A DNA stretch of 32,000 nucleotides, taken from the NCBI RefSeq assembly GCF_000354175.2, contig NC_022359.1:1410001-1442000 (forward strand), written 5' to 3'. The notes under the pieces are model-generated. The model did not search any database, was not told the origin of the DNA, and saw only the letters and a program-made list of their open reading frames with translations. A program made the position numbers and the translations under genes. Of the stretch, positions 20,072 to 32,000 are shown in pieces. Position 1 is the first letter of the stretch; each line of letters starts with the position of its first letter. The stretch comes from Vibrio alginolyticus NBRC 15630 = ATCC 17749 (GTDB taxonomy: Bacteria > Pseudomonadota > Gammaproteobacteria > Enterobacterales > Vibrionaceae).

Positions 20072-20605
20072 TTAAAGCTGTCTTTGTTTCTCTTGTTCAA
20101 CAAAAATGAGCTCGTCGATAGCGAAACCTTTCTCTTTAGCTACGTACTTAAAGCGCTCCACTACTTTCTCATCAACGTTAGGCGTTCTAGACAATAGCCA
20201 CAAATAGTCGTGGTTGTAACCGGAAACAAACGCATAGTCATAGTTTTCACCTAGCTCAAAAACAATGTAAGAAGAGTATATTGGCCCAAAAAAGGAAACC
20301 TTTAAGTGTCCAACCGTTTTATCTTCAACAAAATAAGCTTTGCCTTCAGCTTCTGACCACTGTCGCTCTTCTTCGGAATATCCACGGTTTATCACCTTAA
20401 CCCCACCATCCTCGCGAACCTGATACTCAGCGGTAACGTTGGATAAGCCTCGCTCAAATGAATGGTCTAGGCGTGCAATTTCGTACCACTTACCTAGATA
20501 TGGCTCTAAATCGAAATTATTGACGGGTTCCACCCCATCCGGCTTCGAAGTACAACCAAATAAAGTTGCAAGTGACAAAAGTAAAAATATTTTTATCGAT
20601 TTCAT
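20072..20605 (-). CDS. blc: Outer-membrane lipoprotein Blc (bacterial lipocalin)
   Basis: 177 aa. Lipobox LATLFG|C. YLGKWYEIARLDHSFERGL, VINRGY, GKAYF, LKVSFFGP, DYLWLLSRTP, collinear with remembered E. coli Blc. Confidence 0.9.
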   Translation of the reverse strand: MKSIKIFLLLSLATLFGCTSKPDGVEPVNNFDLEPYLGKWYEIARLDHSFERGLSNVTAEYQVREDGGVKVINRGYSEEERQWSEAEGKAYFVEDKTVGHLKVSFFGPIYSSYIVFELGENYDYAFVSGYNHDYLWLLSRTPNVDEKVVERFKYVAKEKGFAIDELIFVEQEKQRQL

Positions 20606-20912: not shown

Positions 20913-21293
20913 ATGAAATTAAAAACAGTGTCAGTTTGTGCACTTTTGGTGTTACTTGCAGGTTGTCAGCAGGAAAAGCCGAGCGCAACGACACAATTAA
21001 CGACCTCGGCAGATGTATGTAATGCACAAGGAAACATGCCAGGTGGGTGGAATGAGTTTAACGCGACCCCTGATGCACAAAAGGCAATGGCCTTTGTTTT
21101 AAAGAAAATGGACACAATAGCGTCGTTTAAACAAATACTGAATGTTCACGCGCAAATCGTTAGCGGCGTCAACTATGCTATTGAGTTTGAATTGGATGAT
21201 GGCTCTGTTTGGAACACGATTGTTTATCGCAACCTCGATGGCGAATATGCGATTACCCAATCGCCAAAAGAAGGCCACTTTTGCGAACAGTAG
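20913..21293 (+). CDS. Small lipoprotein with stefin/cystatin-like fold (putative cysteine-protease inhibitor)
   Basis: 126 aa. Lipobox LLVLLAG|C. The mature part aligns with remembered human stefin A: MPGGWNEF..ATPDAQ vs MIPGGLSEAKPATPEIQ; QIVSGVNYAIEF vs QVVAGTNYYIKV; IVYRNLDGE vs KVFKSLPGQ. SD agagg 7 nt before the ATG, and a perfect TATAAT at 20878-20883. The CDS is solid. The inhibitor function is inferred. Confidence 0.6.
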   Translation: MKLKTVSVCALLVLLAGCQQEKPSATTQLTTSADVCNAQGNMPGGWNEFNATPDAQKAMAFVLKKMDTIASFKQILNVHAQIVSGVNYAIEFELDDGSVWNTIVYRNLDGEYAITQSPKEGHFCEQ

Positions 21294-21351: not shown

Positions 21352-24300
21352 TTAGACAGCGAAGCGACATTGAGATTTAATCGACACCGTTGAACCAAGT
21401 CTTGATGGTTCTACATCAATCCTCTGCGCCATTTGTTCTTTCAACTCAGAAACGTGAGAAATAACACCGATCATGCGCCCAGTCTGTTGCAGGTCCACTA
21501 GCGTTTGAATAGCAAGATCTAAAGACTCTGGGTCTAAACTACCGAAGCCCTCATCAATAAATAAAGTGTCTAAACGAATACCGCCACTATAGGATTGCAC
21601 AACATCCGACAAACCAAGTGCCAGAGCAAGCGCTGCCATAAATGATTCACCGCCGGAAAGTGTCGCAACATCACGCGTTTTTCCTGTGTAGCCATCTTCA
21701 ACCATTAAATCTAAGCCGCGACCCGCAGCACCTTTGAAGCCCTCTGTTTTTCGAGCAAGAATATAGCGCCCTTTACTCATAAGGCTTAAACGTTGGGAGG
21801 CCTGAATCAGCACATCATCCAACAGTACACCAAGAACAAAGCGATGTAGGCTAACCCTGCTGCCTGTTTTACCACTAGCAACGTCGTACAACGTACCAAA
21901 GACTTTGTATTCTTCTTCTAACTTACTATTTTTCTCATGCAACACGGCAATATCTTTACGAACCTTTTCAAGACGTTCAAATATTGAGCGTGTGGTATCA
22001 AGTTGATTCCTTACTTCAATATATTGCGCCTGCAGAGTGGTTAACCTGTCATTAAACAACTCTAAATTAGGCCTTTCAAGATCTTTCAATGCATGATTTA
22101 AATCATGTAGTGTTTGCTCAAGCTTGGTTTGTGCCTGTTTGAAGCTGTCTATTTCTTGCTGCCAGGCTTGAAGTTCATCATCTCCCACTCGACTACTTAG
22201 ATAATGGCTTTCATCCTCAAATTTACTCGCCTGTAGTGCCTCATTCCACGCTAATTCTGCTTGGCTAAGTTTTTGCTCTGACTCAGATAACCACTGCTTG
22301 TTCGTCGCTAAGTGACTTTCCGCATTTGATTTCTCCAATATCGCTTGCTGCAAAGCGGTTTGCGCCTTTTCTAAGCCTGTGTTCAAACTCAGAATTTGCT
22401 CTTTTGTCAGCAAAATTTCACGTTCAAGCAAGTCAGCGGAACTGTATTTTGGGTCAATAGAAGCTTGTAATTGAGCCAATTGTTCTTGGTTCGCTTTAAC
22501 GGTTGATTCATTTGCCGCCATTTTATTCTGCAGCTCATGAATTTTATTTTCACCCACGACGCAGCGTTGATTAAGCTGTTCAACGTTCTTTTCTAGCTTT
22601 TCAATATCAATAGCTTGTAGACGTAGGAGTTGAGCATTGATCGCTTGCAAATCATTTTGAACCGTCGAGATCTCAGATGTAGCATACTCACCCAACTCCT
22701 CTTTCAACTGGTTACACTGATTCTGATACTGACTAATGACAACGTTATGTTGTTCTAGCTGATTGCTTAGTTGGTTCAACAAGGTTTGAGCTTCTCGCTC
22801 TTTAGCTCTAGCCGCCTGAACTTGCTCTTTTGTAACGGCTTCTTCAACAAACGTTGCGGGGTTAGGATGCGTTTCGCTACCACACACCGGGCATGCTTCA
22901 CCTGCTTTTAGTCGCTGCGCTAATACTGCCGCTTGAGCGTTGTGCCACTTAAGCTCTATCGTATCAGCGGCTTGTTGACGCTGCATATAGCGCTGACTGG
23001 CTTCGTGTAGTGACTGCTGCTTGCCTACAGTTAGCGCATTGAGTTTAGAGAGCTCTAAAGTAAGATCATGCAGCTTTTGTAGATCCTGTAACAGCCGTTG
23101 TTTTTGTTTTATTTCCGCATCGATGCTGCCAATAAGCGCAACATCAACTCGTGCTTTCTCTAGCTCCTTCTGTCCCTGCTGGGCCTGTAACGTTAACTTA
23201 TCTTTTAGTTCTATGTACTGTTTTAACGTTGCTTCAAATTGTTGTTTTTGTTGATAACCCGCCGTTATTTTACTTTCCAAATTGTCTTTCTCGACCAACT
23301 TGTTTTTCATACTTTCAAGCTGATACTGCAGTTGCGTTAACTGCGGGACCTTTGCCGCTGCCTCTTTTGCACTTTGCTGCAAGTTTTCTTGTTCTCTCGC
23401 AACGACATTAGCTTTTTCGAGACTCTCTTCCAAAGCTACGATTTTTTGCCTAAGCTCTTGCGTTTGAGCTTTTGCATTTTGTAATGAGATGTAGGGCAAC
23501 TCTATCTTATTGGCATTTTTAGCGTTTTCTAATTGCTGTTGACGAGCTTTTATCGAATCTGCGTGTTCTAGATGCAGCTTGAGTGCGCTTTCTGCTTGCT
23601 CTCGTTTCGAAAACTCTCCATTCAAGGTTTCCGCTTTTTGCAATTCAGATTTAGCAGTATTGAGCTTATCTAACGCTGCTTGCTCATTCTTTTTATCAGA
23701 CTCTAATTGCTTAGTTACTTGTTCCAGTTGTTGTAATAGTTCTTGTTCAGAACTCGCTTCTGCAACTTGTAAAGCACCTCGAATTTGATTATCAAATTCG
23801 CCTTTCGCTTTACTAATTGCACTCGCTTTATCTTTGAGCGCGTACTCAATTTTTTTATATATGTCAGTTTGAAAGAGCTGGCCAAAAATTTCTTCACGCT
23901 CTTTAGAGCTAGCAAGCAACAGTTCTCGGAATTTTCCTTGAGGCAACACCATAACTTGACGAAATTGAGTTTCATTCAAGCCAATAATATTGCTAACTTC
24001 AGTTTTAACCTGAGTCGTCTTGCTGGTGATAAGCGTTTCAGTCTCACCGAGTTCATAAAGAGCCGCAGTGTGCTTTTTAATCGTCATCCCTTCACCACGG
24101 GCCTTGGGCGCTTCCTGCTCAGGGGATCGAACAACTCGGTATTGTTTGCCGTGTAACGAAAATTCGAGAACTACTTCGGTTGGTAAGTCTTGCGCGGATA
24201 AGTCACACCGCATCTGAATACCTTGTCGCTCATTACCTGTGGTTTCACCATAAAGGGCGAAGCAAATGGCATCTAAGATCGACGTTTTACCGGAACCTGT

Positions 24301-24408
24301 AGGACCATTAATCAAAAATAGAGGGTTACTGCCAAGCTTCTCAAAATGAATGATTTCAGTTTTTGCAAACGGACCAAAGGCTTGCATGGTTAGTTTAATT
24401 GGTTTCAT
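21352..24408 (-). CDS. sbcC: SbcC, SMC-like ATPase subunit of the SbcCD hairpin/DSB nuclease
   Basis: 1018 aa. N-terminal Walker A FLINGPTGSGKTSILDAICFALYG, very long coiled coil with a central zinc hook CPVCGS. C-terminal signature LSGGESF and Walker B LFIDEGFGSLD. Confidence 0.93.
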   Translation of the reverse strand: MKPIKLTMQAFGPFAKTEIIHFEKLGSNPLFLINGPTGSGKTSILDAICFALYGETTGNERQGIQMRCDLSAQDLPTEVVLEFSLHGKQYRVVRSPEQEAPKARGEGMTIKKHTAALYELGETETLITSKTTQVKTEVSNIIGLNETQFRQVMVLPQGKFRELLLASSKEREEIFGQLFQTDIYKKIEYALKDKASAISKAKGEFDNQIRGALQVAEASSEQELLQQLEQVTKQLESDKKNEQAALDKLNTAKSELQKAETLNGEFSKREQAESALKLHLEHADSIKARQQQLENAKNANKIELPYISLQNAKAQTQELRQKIVALEESLEKANVVAREQENLQQSAKEAAAKVPQLTQLQYQLESMKNKLVEKDNLESKITAGYQQKQQFEATLKQYIELKDKLTLQAQQGQKELEKARVDVALIGSIDAEIKQKQRLLQDLQKLHDLTLELSKLNALTVGKQQSLHEASQRYMQRQQAADTIELKWHNAQAAVLAQRLKAGEACPVCGSETHPNPATFVEEAVTKEQVQAARAKEREAQTLLNQLSNQLEQHNVVISQYQNQCNQLKEELGEYATSEISTVQNDLQAINAQLLRLQAIDIEKLEKNVEQLNQRCVVGENKIHELQNKMAANESTVKANQEQLAQLQASIDPKYSSADLLEREILLTKEQILSLNTGLEKAQTALQQAILEKSNAESHLATNKQWLSESEQKLSQAELAWNEALQASKFEDESHYLSSRVGDDELQAWQQEIDSFKQAQTKLEQTLHDLNHALKDLERPNLELFNDRLTTLQAQYIEVRNQLDTTRSIFERLEKVRKDIAVLHEKNSKLEEEYKVFGTLYDVASGKTGSRVSLHRFVLGVLLDDVLIQASQRLSLMSKGRYILARKTEGFKGAAGRGLDLMVEDGYTGKTRDVATLSGGESFMAALALALGLSDVVQSYSGGIRLDTLFIDEGFGSLDPESLDLAIQTLVDLQQTGRMIGVISHVSELKEQMAQRIDVEPSRLGSTVSIKSQCRFAV

Positions 24409-24417
24409 CTTTGGTCC

Positions 24418-25551
24418 CTATTGCTGTGATAATTGCTTAATAATGTCAGTAACAGCTTGCTCTTGCTCTTTAGACAACTGGCTATCTTGCGCCTCAATAA
24501 AAAAATCTCGGAACATATCAATTTCGCTTCGCGCCAACTTTGCTTGCGCCATTTCCTGCTCTACCCCAATTAACATGCCAGGTTTCTCAAGGTGTAAAAC
24601 GTTTGGATACACTGAACGAAGTTTTTCCATTGGGTTTAAAATCGCATGTTTATCCATCAAACGAACTAACAAATAATCTTCATTCTTGGGGTCTGTTTTC
24701 CCTTGCTCAATAACTTTATCCAGCTCGCCCTCTACAATACGCATTTCATGAGGAGCCGTAAGATCAATATGCTTTGCAGAAACGAATCCTTTCTTGTCCA
24801 GTTCAACTAACGTGAAACCTTTTCTCTGGTTCTGTTCACCAAAGCTATACTTCATGAGAGAGCCAGAGTAACGGATATGCTCTGCGCCTTTCTTTTGAGG
24901 CTGATGCAAATGACCAAGTGCGACGTAGTCAAAATCTAAGAAGTGTTCATGACTCACGCGATCAGAACCACCAATAGATAATGGTCGTTCAGAGTCTGAC
25001 TCGATAGCCCCATCAACAAAACAGTGACTCACGAGCACGCGCTTTTGCTTAGAGATAAAGCGCTCTTTAATTTGCTCAACAAGCAATTGATGAGCCTCAT
25101 CATGAGTGGATACCGAGGCTTTGTAGGCAAACCTGACCTGTTCAGGGTCGTTATAAGGCATACCATAAAACGCGACCTCGTCCGCAGAGTCCGTTTTTAT
25201 GATTATGGGAGTGAGCATATCTTCAAAGTTGCTAACAATATGGAGACCTGCATTTTTCATTTGCTCTGAGCCGAAACCTAGCCTTTCTGCACCATCATGG
25301 TTGCCAGATATAAATATCATTGGTGTTTCTAACTCGGTACAAATGCGTTTCACGACTCGATCTAACAGTTCTATTGCAACCGTTGGTGGCACCGAACGGT
25401 CATAGATATCTCCCGCCACTACAACTGCATCGACGGGGTTGCGTTCAATATAGTTAATCAGTTGTTCGAGTACTGCTTGTTGATCTTCGAGTAGTGATAC
25501 GTTGTGGAATTGTCGACCAAGATGCCAATCTGAGGTGTGGATAAACTTCAT
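24418..25551 (-). CDS. sbcD: SbcD, Mre11-type nuclease subunit
   Basis: 377 aa. Calcineurin-like phosphoesterase motifs HTSDWHLG, AGDIYD, GNHD, GHLH. Its stop lies 9 nt before the sbcC start. Confidence 0.93.
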   Translation of the reverse strand: MKFIHTSDWHLGRQFHNVSLLEDQQAVLEQLINYIERNPVDAVVVAGDIYDRSVPPTVAIELLDRVVKRICTELETPMIFISGNHDGAERLGFGSEQMKNAGLHIVSNFEDMLTPIIIKTDSADEVAFYGMPYNDPEQVRFAYKASVSTHDEAHQLLVEQIKERFISKQKRVLVSHCFVDGAIESDSERPLSIGGSDRVSHEHFLDFDYVALGHLHQPQKKGAEHIRYSGSLMKYSFGEQNQRKGFTLVELDKKGFVSAKHIDLTAPHEMRIVEGELDKVIEQGKTDPKNEDYLLVRLMDKHAILNPMEKLRSVYPNVLHLEKPGMLIGVEQEMAQAKLARSEIDMFRDFFIEAQDSQLSKEQEQAVTDIIKQLSQQ

Positions 25552-25909
25552 TCGAATTCACTTTCCGCCAATTCTATGAGTAGGCTTGCTTCTGTCAGAG
25601 TCCATGTACCGTTTATAAAAAGGAATGCGTCACGGGTGGGATCTCGAACAAGCCAAAACTCAAGTTATTTTATATCGGTAAGGATATCTTGAGTCGAACA
25701 GCTTTTCATGTGGTTTGTGTTCTATGGCTGGCTATTTAATCAGAAAGCGAGAAGAACACTGTAAAAACGCGGTGAGCAAAGCTATTTTGAAAAGCAAGCT
25801 GCGCCTAGTCATTGTCCAAACATCATTAAAGGGCCAGTTTCGAGTCAATCCCCCATAACATTTGCATCACTAAAACCTCAGCTACTAGAAGGAAAAGCAA
25901 TAGCCAGAC

Positions 25910-26749
25910 CTATTCGCTACGCCAATTGTATATTACTCCTACCGCATAGCCATCTGGCTCGATGTCGGCTTGCAAAACGTGAAAGTCTGGGCAGGGGCTG
26001 CTTCTTTGAAGCTCATCAATCACTAACGCTTTTAAAACTCCGCCACATGCACCCAATCCGCCAAGTTTTATATCAACAAATTGATACTGAGTTTGATCGG
26101 TCACCCACGGAGACAAGAATTGCATTGAGTTTAACCATTGCGGCTCTTCCTCATTAACGGATAAATACAATTGACTGAGTGGATGTTCACAACTTACTCC
26201 TAATTGCTTAAACACCTTGTCCACGGCGATGCGTTGTTGTTTGGCATCTAAATCAATTCGAACAACATCAGGCACAAGACCTGAATGTCGAAAAAAACAC
26301 TTGGTTAAAATGATAGAGCTTTGAGGTTCGACATGCCCTTCTACATCGCTCGTAACCTCTATAGCCAGTATCCAAGTCGCTTGCGTTTCATTAACTTCAC
26401 GATTTATCCGATTTAGTGCCATCAAAAATGCAGCTTGGCCATAAGGATAAAAGTAAATTTCAGTATTGACAGTTTGGCCAACGAAAATAGAAAGCTCGCT
26501 TATCAATGCTTTAAGCAAGCTTTTGTCTACCGAAGATGGTAAAAGAACACAGAGATTCCCTTTGATATCAACTTGCTCAAGACTCTCGCGCTCAGAGCGC
26601 ACGAGGCTTAATATATGCTCATCTATTGATTGAGCAAAGTCAGGGGGTCGGATTTCCTCGGACAATCTAAAAGAATCATCAGCTATCTCGCGAACGGTGT
26701 GTGAACGGCCATTAAAGGATAGAAGATGCGTTTGAAATGCGAGTGGCAT
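25910..26749 (-). CDS. Hypothetical protein, last gene of the hcp-vgrG-PAAR operon (candidate T6SS cargo/adaptor; family unknown)
   Basis: 279-aa intact ORF. Its ATG (26749-26747) directly follows the PAAR stop TAG (26752-26750). No signal peptide or TM segment. I recognise no diagnostic motif. Confidence refers to it being a real gene, not to any function. Confidence 0.8.
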   Translation of the reverse strand: MPLAFQTHLLSFNGRSHTVREIADDSFRLSEEIRPPDFAQSIDEHILSLVRSERESLEQVDIKGNLCVLLPSSVDKSLLKALISELSIFVGQTVNTEIYFYPYGQAAFLMALNRINREVNETQATWILAIEVTSDVEGHVEPQSSIILTKCFFRHSGLVPDVVRIDLDAKQQRIAVDKVFKQLGVSCEHPLSQLYLSVNEEEPQWLNSMQFLSPWVTDQTQYQFVDIKLGGLGACGGVLKALVIDELQRSSPCPDFHVLQADIEPDGYAVGVIYNWRSE

Positions 26750-27040
26750 CTAGCCTCCGATTAAAACCGTAGGCATACCAGATAGAATTTTGCCACCATG
26801 AGACGTTGAATCGCCGACTCTTGCGGCTGGTTTACCGTTGATTGTTACGCTAGAAGAACCTGCTGAGATACTATCCGGAGGACCGATACAAATAAGCTTG
26901 TCGCCTTGTCTTGCCGCAGGTATCCCGCCAATCGTTACGTTTGGTGAACCAACAACGACGGGACCACCGACATGCGGTATCTTTCCTGTTTTTTTAGGGC
27001 AAAGATGAAAGCTGCCCAAAATTGCGGCTGGTTTACCCAC
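26750..27040 (-). CDS. PAAR-domain T6SS spike-tip protein (stand-alone, no extension)
   Basis: 96 aa. Three PAAR-like repeats: GKPAAILGS, GIPAARQGD, GKPAARVGD. GTG start preceded by SD TAAGGTGA, whose TAA is the vgrG stop. Confidence 0.92.
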   Translation of the reverse strand: MGKPAAILGSFHLCPKKTGKIPHVGGPVVVGSPNVTIGGIPAARQGDKLICIGPPDSISAGSSSVTINGKPAARVGDSTSHGGKILSGMPTVLIGG

Positions 27041-27051
27041 TTTAAATCACC

Positions 27052-28887
27052 TTAGTTCAATGAAATTTGCCCAGCTTTAAGAGCAATAGCTGAGCCGTTA
27101 ATGGATATTTTATTACCTTTGATATTGATTTCTCCAGAGCTAGACATCTGAATAGAAGCACCACCTACTTTGATCTCGACGCTCTTTCCTGCATTAAAAG
27201 ACAGTACTTCACCCGTTTCATTCGAAAAGTTTTTACCTACTTTCAAGCTCGCGTTCTGACCAACCTCTTGATTAACATCATTGGTCACTTTTTCGGTTTT
27301 ACTGTTTTCAACGGCGATATCAACACAGTCTTCAACTAGCATTTGGAACAGTTTTTCAGCATGAAGATAAATGTGCTCTTCACCAGGCTTATCATCGAAG
27401 CGCAACTCATTAAAATTGGATGTACCTTTTTGTACAGAGCGTGATTTATAACCACTCTGAGAACTTTGCTCTGGTAAAGCGTAAGGAGGGAGTTGACTAC
27501 CGTTATATAGTGACCCCGTAACGATTGGTTGATCAGGGTCTCCGTTGACAAACTCGACGATGACCTCTTGTCCGACTCTAGGGTGAAACACCGACCCCCA
27601 TCCGTTACCTGCGATATTTTGCGCAACACGAATCCAACATGAACTATTTACATCGTATTTACCAACACGGTCCCAGTGAAACTGAACTTTGATACGGCCA
27701 TGTTTGTCTATGTAAATTTCACCATCTTTGTTCCCCGTAACTATTGCAGTTTGCAAACCTTTCATCTGAGGTTTCGGATAGTTAACTGAAGGACGAAGGA
27801 TTGTCTTTGAGTCAACACAACTAAACGAGACTTTGACACCTTGCGCACCGGTGCCACCTTGACCAGTCTGGTTATAAACAGCAGCAGACAAAAAAACAGA
27901 AGACAGTACATATTCTTTGCCAACTCGAGATTTATCTTCATGTTTTTTAAACTTGAAGCACTTGCCTACGCTGAATGTTCTGCACGTAGCCTCGCCACGA
28001 CACAAATATGCATTTTGCTGTAGTGCTTCTATTGCATGCGTGTTTCTCAGTGCGTATTGATCATTGCTCTCCATTTCACCCATGTATTCAAAATACTCGC
28101 TTTCAGGCACTGTAAAAAAATCACTTTCACCCTTTGCAGTATTTTTAGGATTCGAAGAAGGCTTGAGCATGTTATAGCCTGACTTTTGACTCGCTTTAGT
28201 AGTCAGAATTTGCGTTTCATGCCAAGAAGAAATGTGGCTAGATTTCGCCGTACCTGTATCAAAATCGACTAAAAACTCAGTACCCGGCTTATAAAAACTG
28301 ATGTCATCAAAAATATTGAGCGTATGGGCAGACTTAGTATGTGTAAAACAAAATGATAGCCCCTCTTCCGATAACAGACGTCGAACAAATTCAAGATCTG
28401 ATTCTTCATATTGTACTTTGTACGTGTATTTAGGATAGGACTTGGTTAGCTCAAAACTAAAGGCAACACTATGCTCCGATAGTACTTCAGAGATAATTTC
28501 CTTTATATCTTTATGCTGAAATATTCTGCAATTTTTTCGATATTCAGCGAAACGTAATTTAGGCTCTATTAATAATTCTATGTTTTTATAATTTTCGCCT
28601 TTATGTGTATTAGAAACCCTTTTCCCTTCTAATCTTGCAGCAGAAACGTAACCATGCATATAACGAGGATTTGAAGAAACATCCTCATTATTTTCAAGGG
28701 TAATGGTAACTTCCTTACCAATAATTTCGTTTAACTCACTTCGTTGATCATTAAAGTAAGCTTTAGCACGCAATGAAAAAAGTTCTGAGATCTCTTCTTT
28801 ATACTCAAACGAGTTTAGTATGATGGCATCTTTACCGAATGGGGAAGAAATTCGGATGAAATTGTTATCTTGAGTTGCTCTTTTCAT
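27052..28887 (-). CDS. vgrG: VgrG (TssI) T6SS spike protein, core only
   Basis: 611 aa. gp27-like N-terminal region, then the gp5 OB-fold block RVAQNIAGNGWGSVFHPRVGQEVIVEFVNGDPDQPIVTGSLYN, NELRFDDKPGEEHIYLHAEK, and terminal beta-helix repeats. It ends at the helix with no effector domain. Confidence 0.93.
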   Translation of the reverse strand: MKRATQDNNFIRISSPFGKDAIILNSFEYKEEISELFSLRAKAYFNDQRSELNEIIGKEVTITLENNEDVSSNPRYMHGYVSAARLEGKRVSNTHKGENYKNIELLIEPKLRFAEYRKNCRIFQHKDIKEIISEVLSEHSVAFSFELTKSYPKYTYKVQYEESDLEFVRRLLSEEGLSFCFTHTKSAHTLNIFDDISFYKPGTEFLVDFDTGTAKSSHISSWHETQILTTKASQKSGYNMLKPSSNPKNTAKGESDFFTVPESEYFEYMGEMESNDQYALRNTHAIEALQQNAYLCRGEATCRTFSVGKCFKFKKHEDKSRVGKEYVLSSVFLSAAVYNQTGQGGTGAQGVKVSFSCVDSKTILRPSVNYPKPQMKGLQTAIVTGNKDGEIYIDKHGRIKVQFHWDRVGKYDVNSSCWIRVAQNIAGNGWGSVFHPRVGQEVIVEFVNGDPDQPIVTGSLYNGSQLPPYALPEQSSQSGYKSRSVQKGTSNFNELRFDDKPGEEHIYLHAEKLFQMLVEDCVDIAVENSKTEKVTNDVNQEVGQNASLKVGKNFSNETGEVLSFNAGKSVEIKVGGASIQMSSSGEINIKGNKISINGSAIALKAGQISLN

Positions 28888-28901: not shown

Positions 28902-28930
28902 AAAAAAATGCGGAGGAATACTCCCCCGCA
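28902..28930 (-). terminator. Intrinsic terminator/attenuator between hcp and vgrG
   Basis: Minus strand, 6 nt after the hcp stop: TGCGGGGG-AGTATT-CCTCCGCA (8 bp, one G-U pair) followed by TTTTTTT. The vgrG ATG is 15 nt further on. Confidence 0.65.
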
Positions 28931-28936
28931 TGAAAA

Positions 28937-29416
28937 TTACATTTGTTGACCTTTAACACCGCTGTAGCCGTATACCAATGGAGCAGAAGTGTTGTTCTTA
29001 TCGTCAGTAGGAGTCACTGTCATCATCATTTCTGTGTAAGAAATTGTGATAGTTTCAACTGGACGATCGTCTTGGATAGAAACTGAGTAGTTAGAAATCA
29101 TCGCATCAGTCAGTTCGATCTTCATGATCTCTTCAACCTTCTCACCCTGCTTAGTAATATGGAAAACCGCTGGTTTACCTTTACCAATCGTCGCTTCTTT
29201 AAATAAGTCAGGAGAAGAACGGTCTTGAAGTTTAGTGATAGTCAAATCATATAGACGAGTAGCGCTCGCTTCACGGTCCATCGCTGTACCAGTGTATGAT
29301 GAGATCTCACGACCTACACTCCAATCTACAGATAGTAGTGTAATCAAATCTTTGTATTGCTCGGCTGTTGCCTCACCCTTAATATCTGCGTATTTAAGAT
29401 ACGTATTAGACTGCAT
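28937..29416 (-). CDS. hcp: Hcp (TssD) T6SS tube protein, Hcp1-type
   Basis: 159 aa. YLKYADIKGEATAEQYKD...LLSVDWSV...DLTITKLQDRSSPDLFKEA parallels remembered P. aeruginosa Hcp1 (FIKIGDVKGESKDKTHAEEIDVLAWSWG...DLSFTKYIDKSTPNLMMAC). Strong SD aggaga 6 nt upstream of the ATG. Confidence 0.9.
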   Translation of the reverse strand: MQSNTYLKYADIKGEATAEQYKDLITLLSVDWSVGREISSYTGTAMDREASATRLYDLTITKLQDRSSPDLFKEATIGKGKPAVFHITKQGEKVEEIMKIELTDAMISNYSVSIQDDRPVETITISYTEMMMTVTPTDDKNNTSAPLVYGYSGVKGQQM

Positions 29417-29624: not shown

Positions 29625-32000
29625 TTAAACTATTGAGACATCAAGTCCACTAGTTGTACCTTTAACAATAATTTCATCAAACGTCTTATCATTAAGAATT
29701 GCATGCAATATTTCATGAGAAATCTTCGGAAGCAATGTATTTTCTATGGTTGTTTGTACCACACGCGCACCACTGCCAGACTCATTGCTATTGTCTACAA
29801 TATCATTAATTAGTTCCTCATCAAAAAACAGGTCAGCGTTATAGTGCTTACGAATACGAGTCGTAATTTTATCCAACTTTAATTTTGTTATTTCTATCAA
29901 TACTTTTCTTGATAGAGGCAAATAAGGTAATACGTTCACACGCCCTAAAAATGCAGGTTTAAAGTCGACCAACAAATCATCGCGTAAAGCATCTTTTAGT
30001 GCTGACGGCTCAGGAGATAAATCAGGATCAGAATACAAAGACATCGTCGTTTCGGTCCCTGTGTTCGCGGTCATAATAATAATAGTGTTTTTAAAGTCTA
30101 TATCTCGACCTTCACCGTCTTTAATTGAGCCTTTATCAAACACCTGATAAAAAATATCTTGAACACCAGGGTGCGCTTTTTCCATTTCATCGAGGAGAAT
30201 TACACTATAAGGTTTACGTCTAACAGCTTCAGTCAGTACACCTCCTTCTCCATAACCGACATAACCAGGAGGAGAACCTAATAGCAATGAGACTTTATGC
30301 TCTTCCTTAAATTCCGACATATTGATAGTCGTGACATTTTCTTCACTACCATAGACTTTCTCTGCAATCGCCAAAGCCGATTCGGTTTTACCCACTCCGC
30401 TTGGTCCGGTTAGGAGAAATACACCATTTGGTCGTGTCTCATCCGTGAGCTGCGCACTCGCGGTTTTTATCACTTCAGACATGAGCTCTAAAGCGTGATC
30501 CTGCCCGACAACTCGCTTACACAAACTTTCTTTCAAACCCAATACTGCTTGGATTTCATCATCCTGAAGTTTACCTAGCGGTATACCGGTCCAATCCGAA
30601 ATAACTTCTGCGATTAGCGCTTCATTTACATGCGAAAAAACTAAGGGCTGTGAGTTAGCGGAAAGGTTATTTTCAAGCTCTTGTAACTTGTCTCTAGCAG
30701 TTTCAGAACCCTCCTGGATTATTTGGGTTCTAAGTGACTTAGCTTCATTTACCCATTCTTTTTCTTTTTCCCAAAGTACTTCTAATTCAATAATGTCATT
30801 AGATAGCGCATCAATCTCTTTTCGGACACCTTGCAGCTGCACATCAAGAGATGCTCCTAGCCGACTCTCTTGGCTAAGATGCTCATACTCAGCTTGCTTT
30901 GCTTTAAGTTTGTTTCTTTTCGCATCTAGGCCTCCCGGTGTAGATGACTGACTTAACGCAACTCGAGAACAGGCCGTATCCAAAACAGAAACCGCTTTAT
31001 CTGGCAGTTGACGACCATTAATGTATCGAGCTGACAGTTGGACCGCTGCATTGAGAGCTTGGTTAGTGATATGAACATCGTGGTGTTGTGCCATTACATC
31101 AAGTAAGCCTCGTAACATTTCGATCGCGAGTTCAGGGGCAGGCTCATCAACCTTTACGACTTGAAAACGCCTAGTTAAAGCTGCATCTTTTTCAAAATAC
31201 TTTTTATACTCTGCCCACGTTGTTGCTGCGATCGTTCTGAGTTCACCTCTCGCTAATGCTGGCTTCAGAATATTCGCCGCATCACCTTGGCCCGCTTGCC
31301 CACCACCGCCAATTAGGCCATGAGCTTCATCAATGAACAATATAATAGGCTGTGGAGCGTCGTTTACTTCCTTAACAAGGTTCTTAAGCCTGTTTTCAAA
31401 CTCACCTTTCATGCCTGCGCCGGCTTGCAGTAACGCCAAATCCAGAGACTTAATTGCCACATTTTGCAGAGCGGGAGGTACATCGCCATCAATGATCTTT
31501 TGCGCCAAACCTTCAACAACGGCTGTTTTTCCAACACCAGCTTCTCCCGTAAGAATCGGGTTGTTTTGTCGGCGTCTTAATAAAATATCGATCATTAGGC
31601 GAATTTCATTATCTCTACCAATCACCGGATCTATTTTACCTTCCCTAGCTTGCTCAGTAAGGTCTGTTGTAAATTGATTCAAGGCGGAATTCGCGTTTGA
31701 CTGCGCTAAGTCATTCGATCTTGATTGAGGCGCATTACTTTCTTTAAAGTTCAATAAGCGAGATGGTTCTATCTTGTTTAGTTCAGGACTAATCGAACCA
31801 GCCATGTTGACTAACGTATCATCAGACAAGTAGGCAAATAAAAGATGGATGCACCCCAACTGTTCTTGATTGAATTCAATGGTTGCAGACAACAAGGCAT
31901 TTTGCATAACAGTCACCGTATGAGCTGATAGCCCAGGCACCGACTGGCATCCTGTTTTGTATTTTTCTAATGCCTTTTGAATATCGGTTTCAACCTTGAT
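29625..32000 (-). CDS. clpV: ClpV (TssH) T6SS AAA+ sheath-recycling ATPase; N-terminus outside the window
   Basis: The listed ORF (GTG at 31940) is an artefact. The frame stays open to nt 32000 (IKVETDIQKALEKYKTGCQSVPGLS...). Two AAA modules: Walker A GEAGVGKTAVVEGLA with Walker B ILFIDEAH, and Walker A GPSGVGKTESALAIA with Walker B ILLDEMEKAH. Middle-domain coiled coil present. Confidence 0.93.
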   Translation of the reverse strand: MKVETDIQKALEKYKTGCQSVPGLSAHTVTVMQNALLSATIEFNQEQLGCIHLLFAYLSDDTLVNMAGSISPELNKIEPSRLLNFKESNAPQSRSNDLAQSNANSALNQFTTDLTEQAREGKIDPVIGRDNEIRLMIDILLRRRQNNPILTGEAGVGKTAVVEGLAQKIIDGDVPPALQNVAIKSLDLALLQAGAGMKGEFENRLKNLVKEVNDAPQPIILFIDEAHGLIGGGGQAGQGDAANILKPALARGELRTIAATTWAEYKKYFEKDAALTRRFQVVKVDEPAPELAIEMLRGLLDVMAQHHDVHITNQALNAAVQLSARYINGRQLPDKAVSVLDTACSRVALSQSSTPGGLDAKRNKLKAKQAEYEHLSQESRLGASLDVQLQGVRKEIDALSNDIIELEVLWEKEKEWVNEAKSLRTQIIQEGSETARDKLQELENNLSANSQPLVFSHVNEALIAEVISDWTGIPLGKLQDDEIQAVLGLKESLCKRVVGQDHALELMSEVIKTASAQLTDETRPNGVFLLTGPSGVGKTESALAIAEKVYGSEENVTTINMSEFKEEHKVSLLLGSPPGYVGYGEGGVLTEAVRRKPYSVILLDEMEKAHPGVQDIFYQVFDKGSIKDGEGRDIDFKNTIIIMTANTGTETTMSLYSDPDLSPEPSALKDALRDDLLVDFKPAFLGRVNVLPYLPLSRKVLIEITKLKLDKITTRIRKHYNADLFFDEELINDIVDNSNESGSGARVVQTTIENTLLPKISHEILHAILNDKTFDEIIVKGTTSGLDVSIV

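Follow-up and report, generated by a model that had tools for sequence, protein, structure and literature searches.

A thiolase-fold protein lacking conserved catalytic residues ends the T6SS2 operon of Vibrio alginolyticus and may serve as a spike accessory for Rhs effectors

Type VI secretion system 2 (T6SS2) is present in essentially all Vibrio parahaemolyticus strains and is also found in V. alginolyticus. In V. parahaemolyticus RIMD 2210633, the last gene of the T6SS2 operon VPA1027-1024 is VPA1024, whose product was assigned a "duplicated thiolase-like fold" from AlphaFold models and whose link to the T6SS "remains enigmatic" (PMC10734457). Here, we analyze its positional counterpart in V. 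alginolyticus NBRC 15630, a 279-amino-acid (aa) open reading frame (ORF) that we call X and that is encoded on the minus strand, at positions 25910 to 26749 of a 32,000-nucleotide stretch (NC_022359.1, positions 1,410,001 to 1,442,000), the whole of which we refer to as the window. We infer, with roughly an even chance of being right about both its role and its Rhs specificity, that X is a nonsecreted accessory of the VgrG-PAAR spike and probably an adaptor or chaperone that loads an effector of the DUF6531-Rhs class. This reading builds on what our analysis documents directly, namely, the gene, its fold, its missing catalytic residues, its synteny, and its absence from published secretomes. 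While the thiolase-like fold of VPA1024 was already known, what is new is the systematic linkage to rhs genes, the finding that X has lost its catalytic residues, and the way in which X evolves.

The proteins exported by T6SS2 have been cataloged in both species. In V. alginolyticus 12G01, the system is antibacterial, and its secretome consists of VgrG2 (Va07588, which corresponds to VPA1026) and six further proteins whose genes lie outside the cluster, one of them being Va18287, an Rhs nuclease homologous to VP1517 (PMC4549250). The secretomes of V. parahaemolyticus BB22OP and RIMD contain Hcp2, VgrG2, and, in BB22OP only, PAAR2; the effectors found in them are without exception encoded outside the cluster, and the Rhs protein T2Rhs-Nuc (VP1517) is conserved and needed for Hcp2 secretion in this species (PMC9980498).

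The described T6SS adaptors offer a second point of comparison. Like X, the families DUF4123 (Tap-1/TEC), DUF1795 (EagR/EagT), DUF2169, and DUF2875 (Tla3) are encoded between spike and cargo, which is where genes for T6SS adaptors classically lie, and they likewise are absent from supernatants, have no immunity partner, and show codivergence. The partners of DUF1795 chaperones carry prePAAR and N-terminal transmembrane helices, and the partner of DUF2169 is a DUF4150/PIPY tip. X differs from all four families in sequence: neither X nor any of the 19 family members in our alignment matched the Pfam models of DUF4123 (E ≤ 1 for X and E ≤ 5 for the 19 members), DUF1795, or DUF2169, DUF2875 was unmatched in the 19 members at E ≤ 5, and the tip at this locus is a canonical PAAR_motif protein. 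The predicted fold of X, that of a thiolase, also sets it apart, DUF2169 having been described as a novel fold (PMC11883445). X would work most like these adaptors, although it is a member of none of the four families.

A third group, the "thiolase-like" IPR040771 genes of vgrG1b/DUF2169 clusters (synteny type A), shares with X a thiolase fold; these genes lie between VgrG and the spike-tip effector. Such clusters occur in Pseudomonas aeruginosa, P. fluorescens, Proteus mirabilis (Pef), and S. fredii, with VP1399 probably belonging to the same type (PMC11883445, PMC11872809, PMC10734457). In the P. mirabilis cluster, a transposon hit in each gene abolishes killing by the effector of the cluster (PMC11883445). 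X has no detectable sequence relation to the IPR040771 proteins, as no Pfam thiolase-like model was matched by any of the 19 family members (E ≤ 5). The neighborhoods differ as well: the IPR040771 genes are accompanied by DUF2169, an OB-fold protein, DUF4150/PIPY, and HEAT repeats, whereas X is accompanied by a canonical PAAR, sbcD, and, elsewhere, PAAR-less DUF6531-Rhs genes.

The link to Rhs proteins emerged from a survey of 12 lineages that carry X (the window, L001/L002, L003, L004, L005/6, and L008 to L015). A preliminary description of this stretch, made from the letters of the DNA, had raised the question of whether homologs always sit after PAAR in T6SS loci; in 12 of 12 lineages, X comes immediately after PAAR, or after VgrG if PAAR is missing, at the cluster's end, and the cluster type common to the lineages is TssF-TssG-ClpV-Hcp-VgrG-PAAR-X. 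A large PAAR-less Rhs gene (DUF6531, YD-shell, and RHS) is the next gene after X in seven lineages (V. harveyi L005/6, L008, V. cidicii L009, V. nigripulchritudo L010, Photobacterium L011 and L014, and L015), starting between -10 nt and +15 nt relative to the X stop codon. The encoded Rhs proteins have a soluble N-terminal region followed by DUF6531 and carry no PAAR; from locus to locus, they share homologous N-terminal and core regions but end in unrelated toxin domains at the C terminus. In all six loci whose contig continues past rhs, this gene is followed by one or more small ORFs. Some of these match immunity-type families (Imm49 and Tsi6), those of L005 and L014 have no Pfam match, and we presume that the small ORF downstream of rhs is an immunity gene.

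The window itself is the tail of the V. alginolyticus T6SS2 locus on chromosome 2, and its features are as follows.

25910-26749, minus strand: X, 279 aa, ATG start; apparent thiolase/KAS III-fold pseudo-enzyme, putative T6SS2 accessory protein of the VPA1024 type
26750-27040, minus strand: PAAR2, 96 aa; bare PAAR_motif domain (PF05488, E = 2.9e-28)
27052-28887, minus strand: VgrG2, 611 aa; Phage_GPD, Phage_base_V, and Gp5_trimer_C (TIGR03361, E = 5e-170); no C-terminal toxin extension
28908-28931, minus strand: terminator-like hairpin between hcp2 and vgrG2, found by pattern scan only; 10-bp stem with 6 GC pairs, followed by a T-run
28937-29416, minus strand: Hcp2, 159 aa (PF05638, E = 1.2e-32)
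29625-31940, minus strand: ClpV2 (TssH), ORF; homologous loci have an 855-aa ClpV in the same place
25552-25909: noncoding spacer between X and sbcD, 358 bp; site at which related genomes have the Rhs effector gene and its downstream small ORF(s)
24418-25551: sbcD, the next gene past the 358-bp spacer
21352-24408: sbcC, beyond sbcD

Since its homologs are 855 aa long, the true start of ClpV2 probably lies beyond the end of the window. The hairpin between hcp2 and vgrG2 may act as an attenuator that sets the Hcp-to-spike ratio, with Hcp made in excess over the spike genes.

The stop codon of PAAR2 touches the start codon of X with zero spacer (GGA GGC TAG ATG CCA CTC), and the last two codons of PAAR2 (GGA GGC, Gly-Gly) provide a GGAGG Shine-Dalgarno sequence for X, 4 nt upstream of its ATG. 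This internal motif adds to the abutting codons from which the preliminary description had deduced translational coupling, and the identical abutting junction is found in L001, L005, L008, and L009. Also in line with that description, VgrG2 and PAAR2 consist of their Pfam core domains without extension, X has no hydrophobic segment (maximum Kyte-Doolittle 19-residue mean of 1.34) and is acidic (pI 4.8), and the 358 bp that separate it from sbcD contain no ORF of more than 38 aa on the operon strand.

In V. harveyi L005, approximately 6.5 kb separates X from sbcD and holds rhs, the small ORF, and further genes. The V. alginolyticus spacer contains no Rhs relics, and all it has in common with the V. 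harveyi region is a conserved element of approximately 40 bp upstream of sbcD (window positions 25681 to 25721; L005, 15520 to 15559 and 17229 to 17267; L004, 1115 to 1152). The two V. harveyi copies of this element flank part of the post-Rhs insert (a GAD-like gene and two further ORFs), and the element might be regulatory, or it might be a scar left by a junction or by recombination.

X differs from its operon partners in how it evolves. Between the window and V. diabolicus, amino acid identity is 100% for Hcp and PAAR and 96% for SbcD but 73% for X; between the window and V. harveyi, it is 99% for Hcp, 84% for PAAR, 71% for VgrG, and 86% for SbcD but 38% for X. The nonsynonymous divergence (dN) of X from V. 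diabolicus is 0.141, compared with 0 to 0.045 for its neighbors. As judged by these comparisons, no other gene of the operon evolves as fast as X. X and its V. parahaemolyticus or V. parahaemolyticus-like counterpart are only about 33 to 45% identical, although Hcp2 is 100% and PAAR 90% identical; a partial V. parahaemolyticus protein (TOM50917.1) matches X with 44% identity and an E value of 1e-21. VPA1024 and X share the same position in hcp2-vgrG2-PAAR2-X and the same duplicated thiolase-like fold, and the V. parahaemolyticus-like locus L013 has the gene order of the window, including the sbcD-sbcC pair past X. We treat the two proteins as positional counterparts, their presumed orthology resting on position, fold, and partial sequence.

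In the six loci that have both X and Rhs, which give 15 nonindependent pairs, the pairwise identity of X correlates with that of Rhs residues 151 to 700 (r = 0.94, or 0.81 without one close pair) and with that of VgrG (r = 0.87, or 0.72 without the close pair), and it does not track that of Hcp (r = -0.17, or 0.29 without the close pair). Few and nonindependent as these pairs are, they suggest that VgrG, X, and Rhs form a module that is inherited together or evolves together. Hypervariability of the VgrG C terminus, which might have signaled adaptor docking, is absent: the divergence of VgrG is mostly within residues 50 to 300, and its extreme C terminus is conserved.

Two further observations concern the sequences compared. 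Proteins P0085 and P0024/P0025, both labeled V. alginolyticus, represent X alleles that are approximately 41% identical, which points to allele replacement at the X locus within or between closely related species. In V. diabolicus L001 (CCKK01000002, 7862 to 9698), vgrG2 is distributed over four ORFs by four single-base indels, while the rest of the 10.6-kb alignment with the window is essentially gap-free; this vgrG2 is either a pseudogene or affected by sequencing errors.

The close tie of X to the spike genes also raises the prospect that X is a general assembly or stabilizing chaperone for VgrG2-PAAR2, comparable to DUF2169 at PIPY tips, that acts independently of any particular effector. 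The tight coupling to PAAR by abutting codons and a Shine-Dalgarno sequence within PAAR, the presence of X in clusters without an adjacent Rhs, and the correlation of X with VgrG identity are all in keeping with such a role, which has a precedent in the requirement of DUF2169 for VgrG1 secretion (PMC11883445). Even so, we regard a general chaperone as rather unlikely. Canonical PAAR domains bind VgrG unaided (PMC11883445), and the low identity of X to its V. diabolicus homolog would be unexpected for a chaperone of partners as conserved as PAAR. Moreover, X is intact in three loci where the adjacent PAAR gene is missing, namely, L004 (150 to 270, where a remnant of about the last 10 PAAR codons is left), L010 (7935 to 8001), and L014 (6890 to 7001). 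The downstream Rhs gene is intact too in L010 and L014; in V. nigripulchritudo L010, vgrG is also split.

The preliminary description had argued that X, as the only unassigned gene of the operon, must be the payload if VgrG2 and PAAR2 carry none. This argument fails, because the T6SS2 payloads identified by proteomics in 12G01, Va18287 among them, are all encoded outside the cluster (PMC4549250). From the gene order of this strain (V12G01_07578, ClpV; 07583, Hcp2; 07588, VgrG2; and 07608, SbcC), X is V12G01_07598, which is missing from the 12G01 secretome entries listed, where Hcp2 and VgrG2 are abundant (PMC4549250). Its counterpart VPA1024 is not among the secreted proteins of the two V. parahaemolyticus strains (PMC9980498). 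These results bear on the possibility that X is itself a secreted cargo effector, either anti-eukaryotic or protected by an immunity gene located elsewhere. Its position at the tail of a spike operon, its fast evolution, and its acidic, soluble nature would fit a cargo protein, and secretome proteomics can miss effectors (PMC9980498). Nevertheless, X matches no toxin family in Pfam or NCBIfam and has no conserved catalytic residues, and its position is fixed in every lineage, whereas it is the adjoining toxin gene that varies at its C terminus. No immunity-like ORF follows X in the window; this is explained if X is not a toxin, as sister lineages hold a toxin gene and a presumed immunity gene just downstream. 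We therefore consider an effector role very unlikely. Of the three options that the preliminary description had left standing, an adaptor or tip cap gains from synteny and nonsecretion, whereas both effector options lose ground to the secretomes and the lack of toxin features.

The fold of X could be modeled with confidence. AlphaFold2, supplied with the 19-sequence alignment, returned a model with a pLDDT of 89.4 and a pTM of 0.90; an alignment of this size was required, as three sequences gave a pLDDT of only 39.7. A Foldseek search of the model against the PDB yielded 623 matches at E ≤ 1e-3, and the top 50 were all members of the thiolase superfamily (KAS III/FabH, type II and type III polyketide synthases, PqsD, OleA, and ChlB3), the best with E values of approximately 1e-8 (1.5e-8), a probability of 1.0, a TM score of about 0.55, and identities of 7 to 14%. 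The model thus places X, with confidence, in the five-layer alpha-beta-alpha-beta-alpha duplicated thiolase/KAS III fold. The overall fold is common to X, KAS III/FabH, and type III polyketide synthases, but these enzymes comprise 310 to 400 aa, compared with the 279 aa of X, and there are no fatty acid or polyketide genes near X.

Active enzymes of the thiolase superfamily depend on a nucleophilic cysteine at the N terminus of helix N-alpha-3 and on two conserved residues of the C-terminal half of the protein, either His/Asn or His/His. In the alignment of the X family, no column reaches 60% Cys, His, or Asn. M1, P102, G104, G157, and W205 are invariant, and P71, Y103, L232, and G233 are nearly so. 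In the model of X, a strand (residues 98 to 101) leads into a helix (residues 104 to 122), and the position of the catalytic cysteine appears to correspond to residue 105 at the N terminus of this helix. This register derives from the secondary structure of the model and from the motif match of YPYG-x-AAFLMAL in X to C-AGFTYAL in FabH. Across the family, residue 105 is Q, E, N, S, H, or R and never Cys. A second motif likeness, between G-x-LGACGG-V-x-x-AL in X and GNTSAAS-V-x-x-AL in FabH, would place the nearly invariant L232 at the position of the catalytic asparagine, and the position of the histidine appears to be variable. An hhalign comparison of the X family with Escherichia coli FabH gave a nonsignificant local match in the same register, which serves as a consistency check only. 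Because no Cys, His, or Asn is conserved, X looks like a minimal, catalytically dead pseudo-enzyme on a thiolase fold. The faint resemblance to thiolase and ketoacyl synthase folds, without an obvious catalytic set, that had been noticed in the sequence by eye is thereby borne out by the predicted structure.

A confident thiolase fold could of course also belong to an active, noncanonical enzyme of this superfamily, for instance, an acyltransferase whose substrate is a component of the spike or an effector, or an enzyme that makes a small molecule. The invariant cluster of P102-Y103-G104, L232-G233, and W205 lies at what we infer to be the active-site-equivalent helix N termini, and a connection of polyketide and fatty acid chemistry with the T6SS has been raised as "enigmatic" (PMC10734457). 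However, a nucleophile, be it Cys, His, Asn, or Ser, is conserved nowhere in the family, the presumptive cysteine position is mostly occupied by Arg or other polar residues, and X at its short length is without the usual substrate-binding insertions. No acyl carrier protein, coenzyme A ligase, or other lipid metabolism gene is found in its neighborhood, and the Pfam model ACP_syn_III was weakly matched by just 1 of the 19 family members (E = 0.012). Like an effector role, enzymatic activity is very unlikely.

By sequence, X belongs to no described family. In agreement with the preliminary description, it had no match in Pfam (E ≤ 1), NCBIfam, or PADLOC; searches against PDB sequences (phmmer/hmmsearch) gave nothing usable, and tblastn against plasmids gave no match. 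When 1.8 billion representative proteins were searched exhaustively with a profile, the X family proved to comprise only 21 clusters at 50% identity, mainly from Vibrionaceae. Its hosts within Vibrio are V. alginolyticus, V. diabolicus/antiquarius, V. harveyi, V. hyugaensis, V. rotiferianus, V. cidicii/navarrensis, V. nigripulchritudo, V. tapetis, and V. nereis, and those outside this genus are Photobacterium, Agarivorans, and Corallincola. A pattern-based genome scan for the X locus recovered only V. diabolicus, the patterns being clade-specific. The sequence of X is identical to proteins from many V. alginolyticus genomes, and its 90%-identity cluster holds 197 sequences; among the members listed, most are full-length and from V. 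alginolyticus.

In RefSeq and UniRef, the family is labeled "NAD/NADP transhydrogenase subunit beta" and, in some entries, "3-oxoacyl-ACP synthase." The former protein, PntB, is a multipass membrane protein of approximately 460 aa with a PNTB domain. X, with 279 aa, no membrane segment, no PNTB domain, and no Pfam or NCBIfam match, is not PntB, and the name appears to be a propagated misannotation. The RefSeq name is therefore wrong and should be replaced.

Conservation in 21 clusters, a dN/dS ratio of 0.24 relative to V. diabolicus (compared with 0.036 for SbcD), and the well-scored AlphaFold2 model establish X as a real gene, whose dN/dS ratio indicates that the protein is under purifying selection. 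In the V. parahaemolyticus-like locus L013 (2738 to 3578), X extends over three reading frames (78, 156, and 77 aa) as a result of either two frameshifts or assembly errors. That X is a decaying, functionless remnant in V. alginolyticus after loss of an adjacent rhs module, as the window without rhs, the raised dN/dS ratio, and the split gene of L013 could suggest, is highly improbable and the weakest of the explanations, given the intact ORF across its 90%-identity cluster, the purifying selection that still acts on it, a T6SS2-secreted Rhs protein encoded elsewhere in V. alginolyticus (PMC4549250), and the chance that the L013 frameshifts are artifacts.

We thus return to X as a nonsecreted spike accessory and propose the following sequence of events. 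X would be made together with PAAR2 by translational coupling and would stay in the cytoplasm, unsecreted. There, it would hold or present a PAAR-less DUF6531-Rhs cargo of the T2Rhs/RhsP class (Va18287 in V. alginolyticus), which would be loaded with the help of X onto VgrG2-PAAR2 ahead of firing. Within the clade of V. alginolyticus and V. parahaemolyticus, X has no rhs gene beside it, and a homologous Rhs effector is encoded elsewhere in the genome, with X kept at the tail of hcp2-vgrG2-PAAR2; the absence of a toxin or immunity gene after X in the window would follow from this arrangement. The proposal would account for the fixed position of X, its adjacency to Rhs in sister lineages, and their rapid codivergence, as well as for a protein that has no toxin domain, catalytic residues, immunity gene, or presence in the secretomes.

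Several points weigh against an Rhs adaptor. No rhs lies beside X in 5 of the 12 surveyed lineages, namely, the window clade, L004, L013, Corallincola L003, and L012. Absence from the secretomes is negative evidence, and PAAR2 is likewise missing from the 12G01 secretome entries listed (PMC4549250). As summarized in PMC9980498, Tang et al. (2022) report that the VIR region of T2Rhs-Nuc itself mediates binding to VgrG2, so that an adaptor may be dispensable. The codivergence rests on the 15 nonindependent pairs described above. Finally, the most conserved motifs, PYG (residues 102 to 104) and G-x-LG (residues 230 to 233), lie at the presumed active-site-equivalent helix N termini, a placement that could mean ligand binding rather than protein binding.

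Two ORFs past sbcC appear to be unrelated to the T6SS. One (20072 to 20605, minus strand) encodes a lipoprotein that is lipocalin-like by eye, and the other (20913 to 21293, plus strand) encodes a small secreted protein whose L013 counterpart has a weak cystatin match in Pfam.

For T6SS2 to fire, V. parahaemolyticus requires an Rhs effector whose gene lies far away from the cluster, and VPA1024/X is the one gene reported in that cluster without an assigned role. Extending the adaptor proposal, we tentatively suggest, as a possibility somewhat less probable than the proposal itself, that the X family is a new adaptor class built on a dead ketosynthase fold and dedicated to the loading of PAAR-less DUF6531-Rhs proteins. 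It would then be the missing part of an "Rhs loading checkpoint" by which the firing of T6SS2 is gated in both V. parahaemolyticus and V. alginolyticus, and it might be unified mechanistically with the thiolase-like genes of the vgrG1b/DUF2169 clusters of Pseudomonas, Proteus, and rhizobia. If this is true, X would represent a fifth, structurally distinct family of T6SS adaptors and a case in which a chaperone for secretion was recruited from an enzyme fold, and it would provide a handle on the unexplained thiolase-like genes that recur beside spike genes in other T6SS types.

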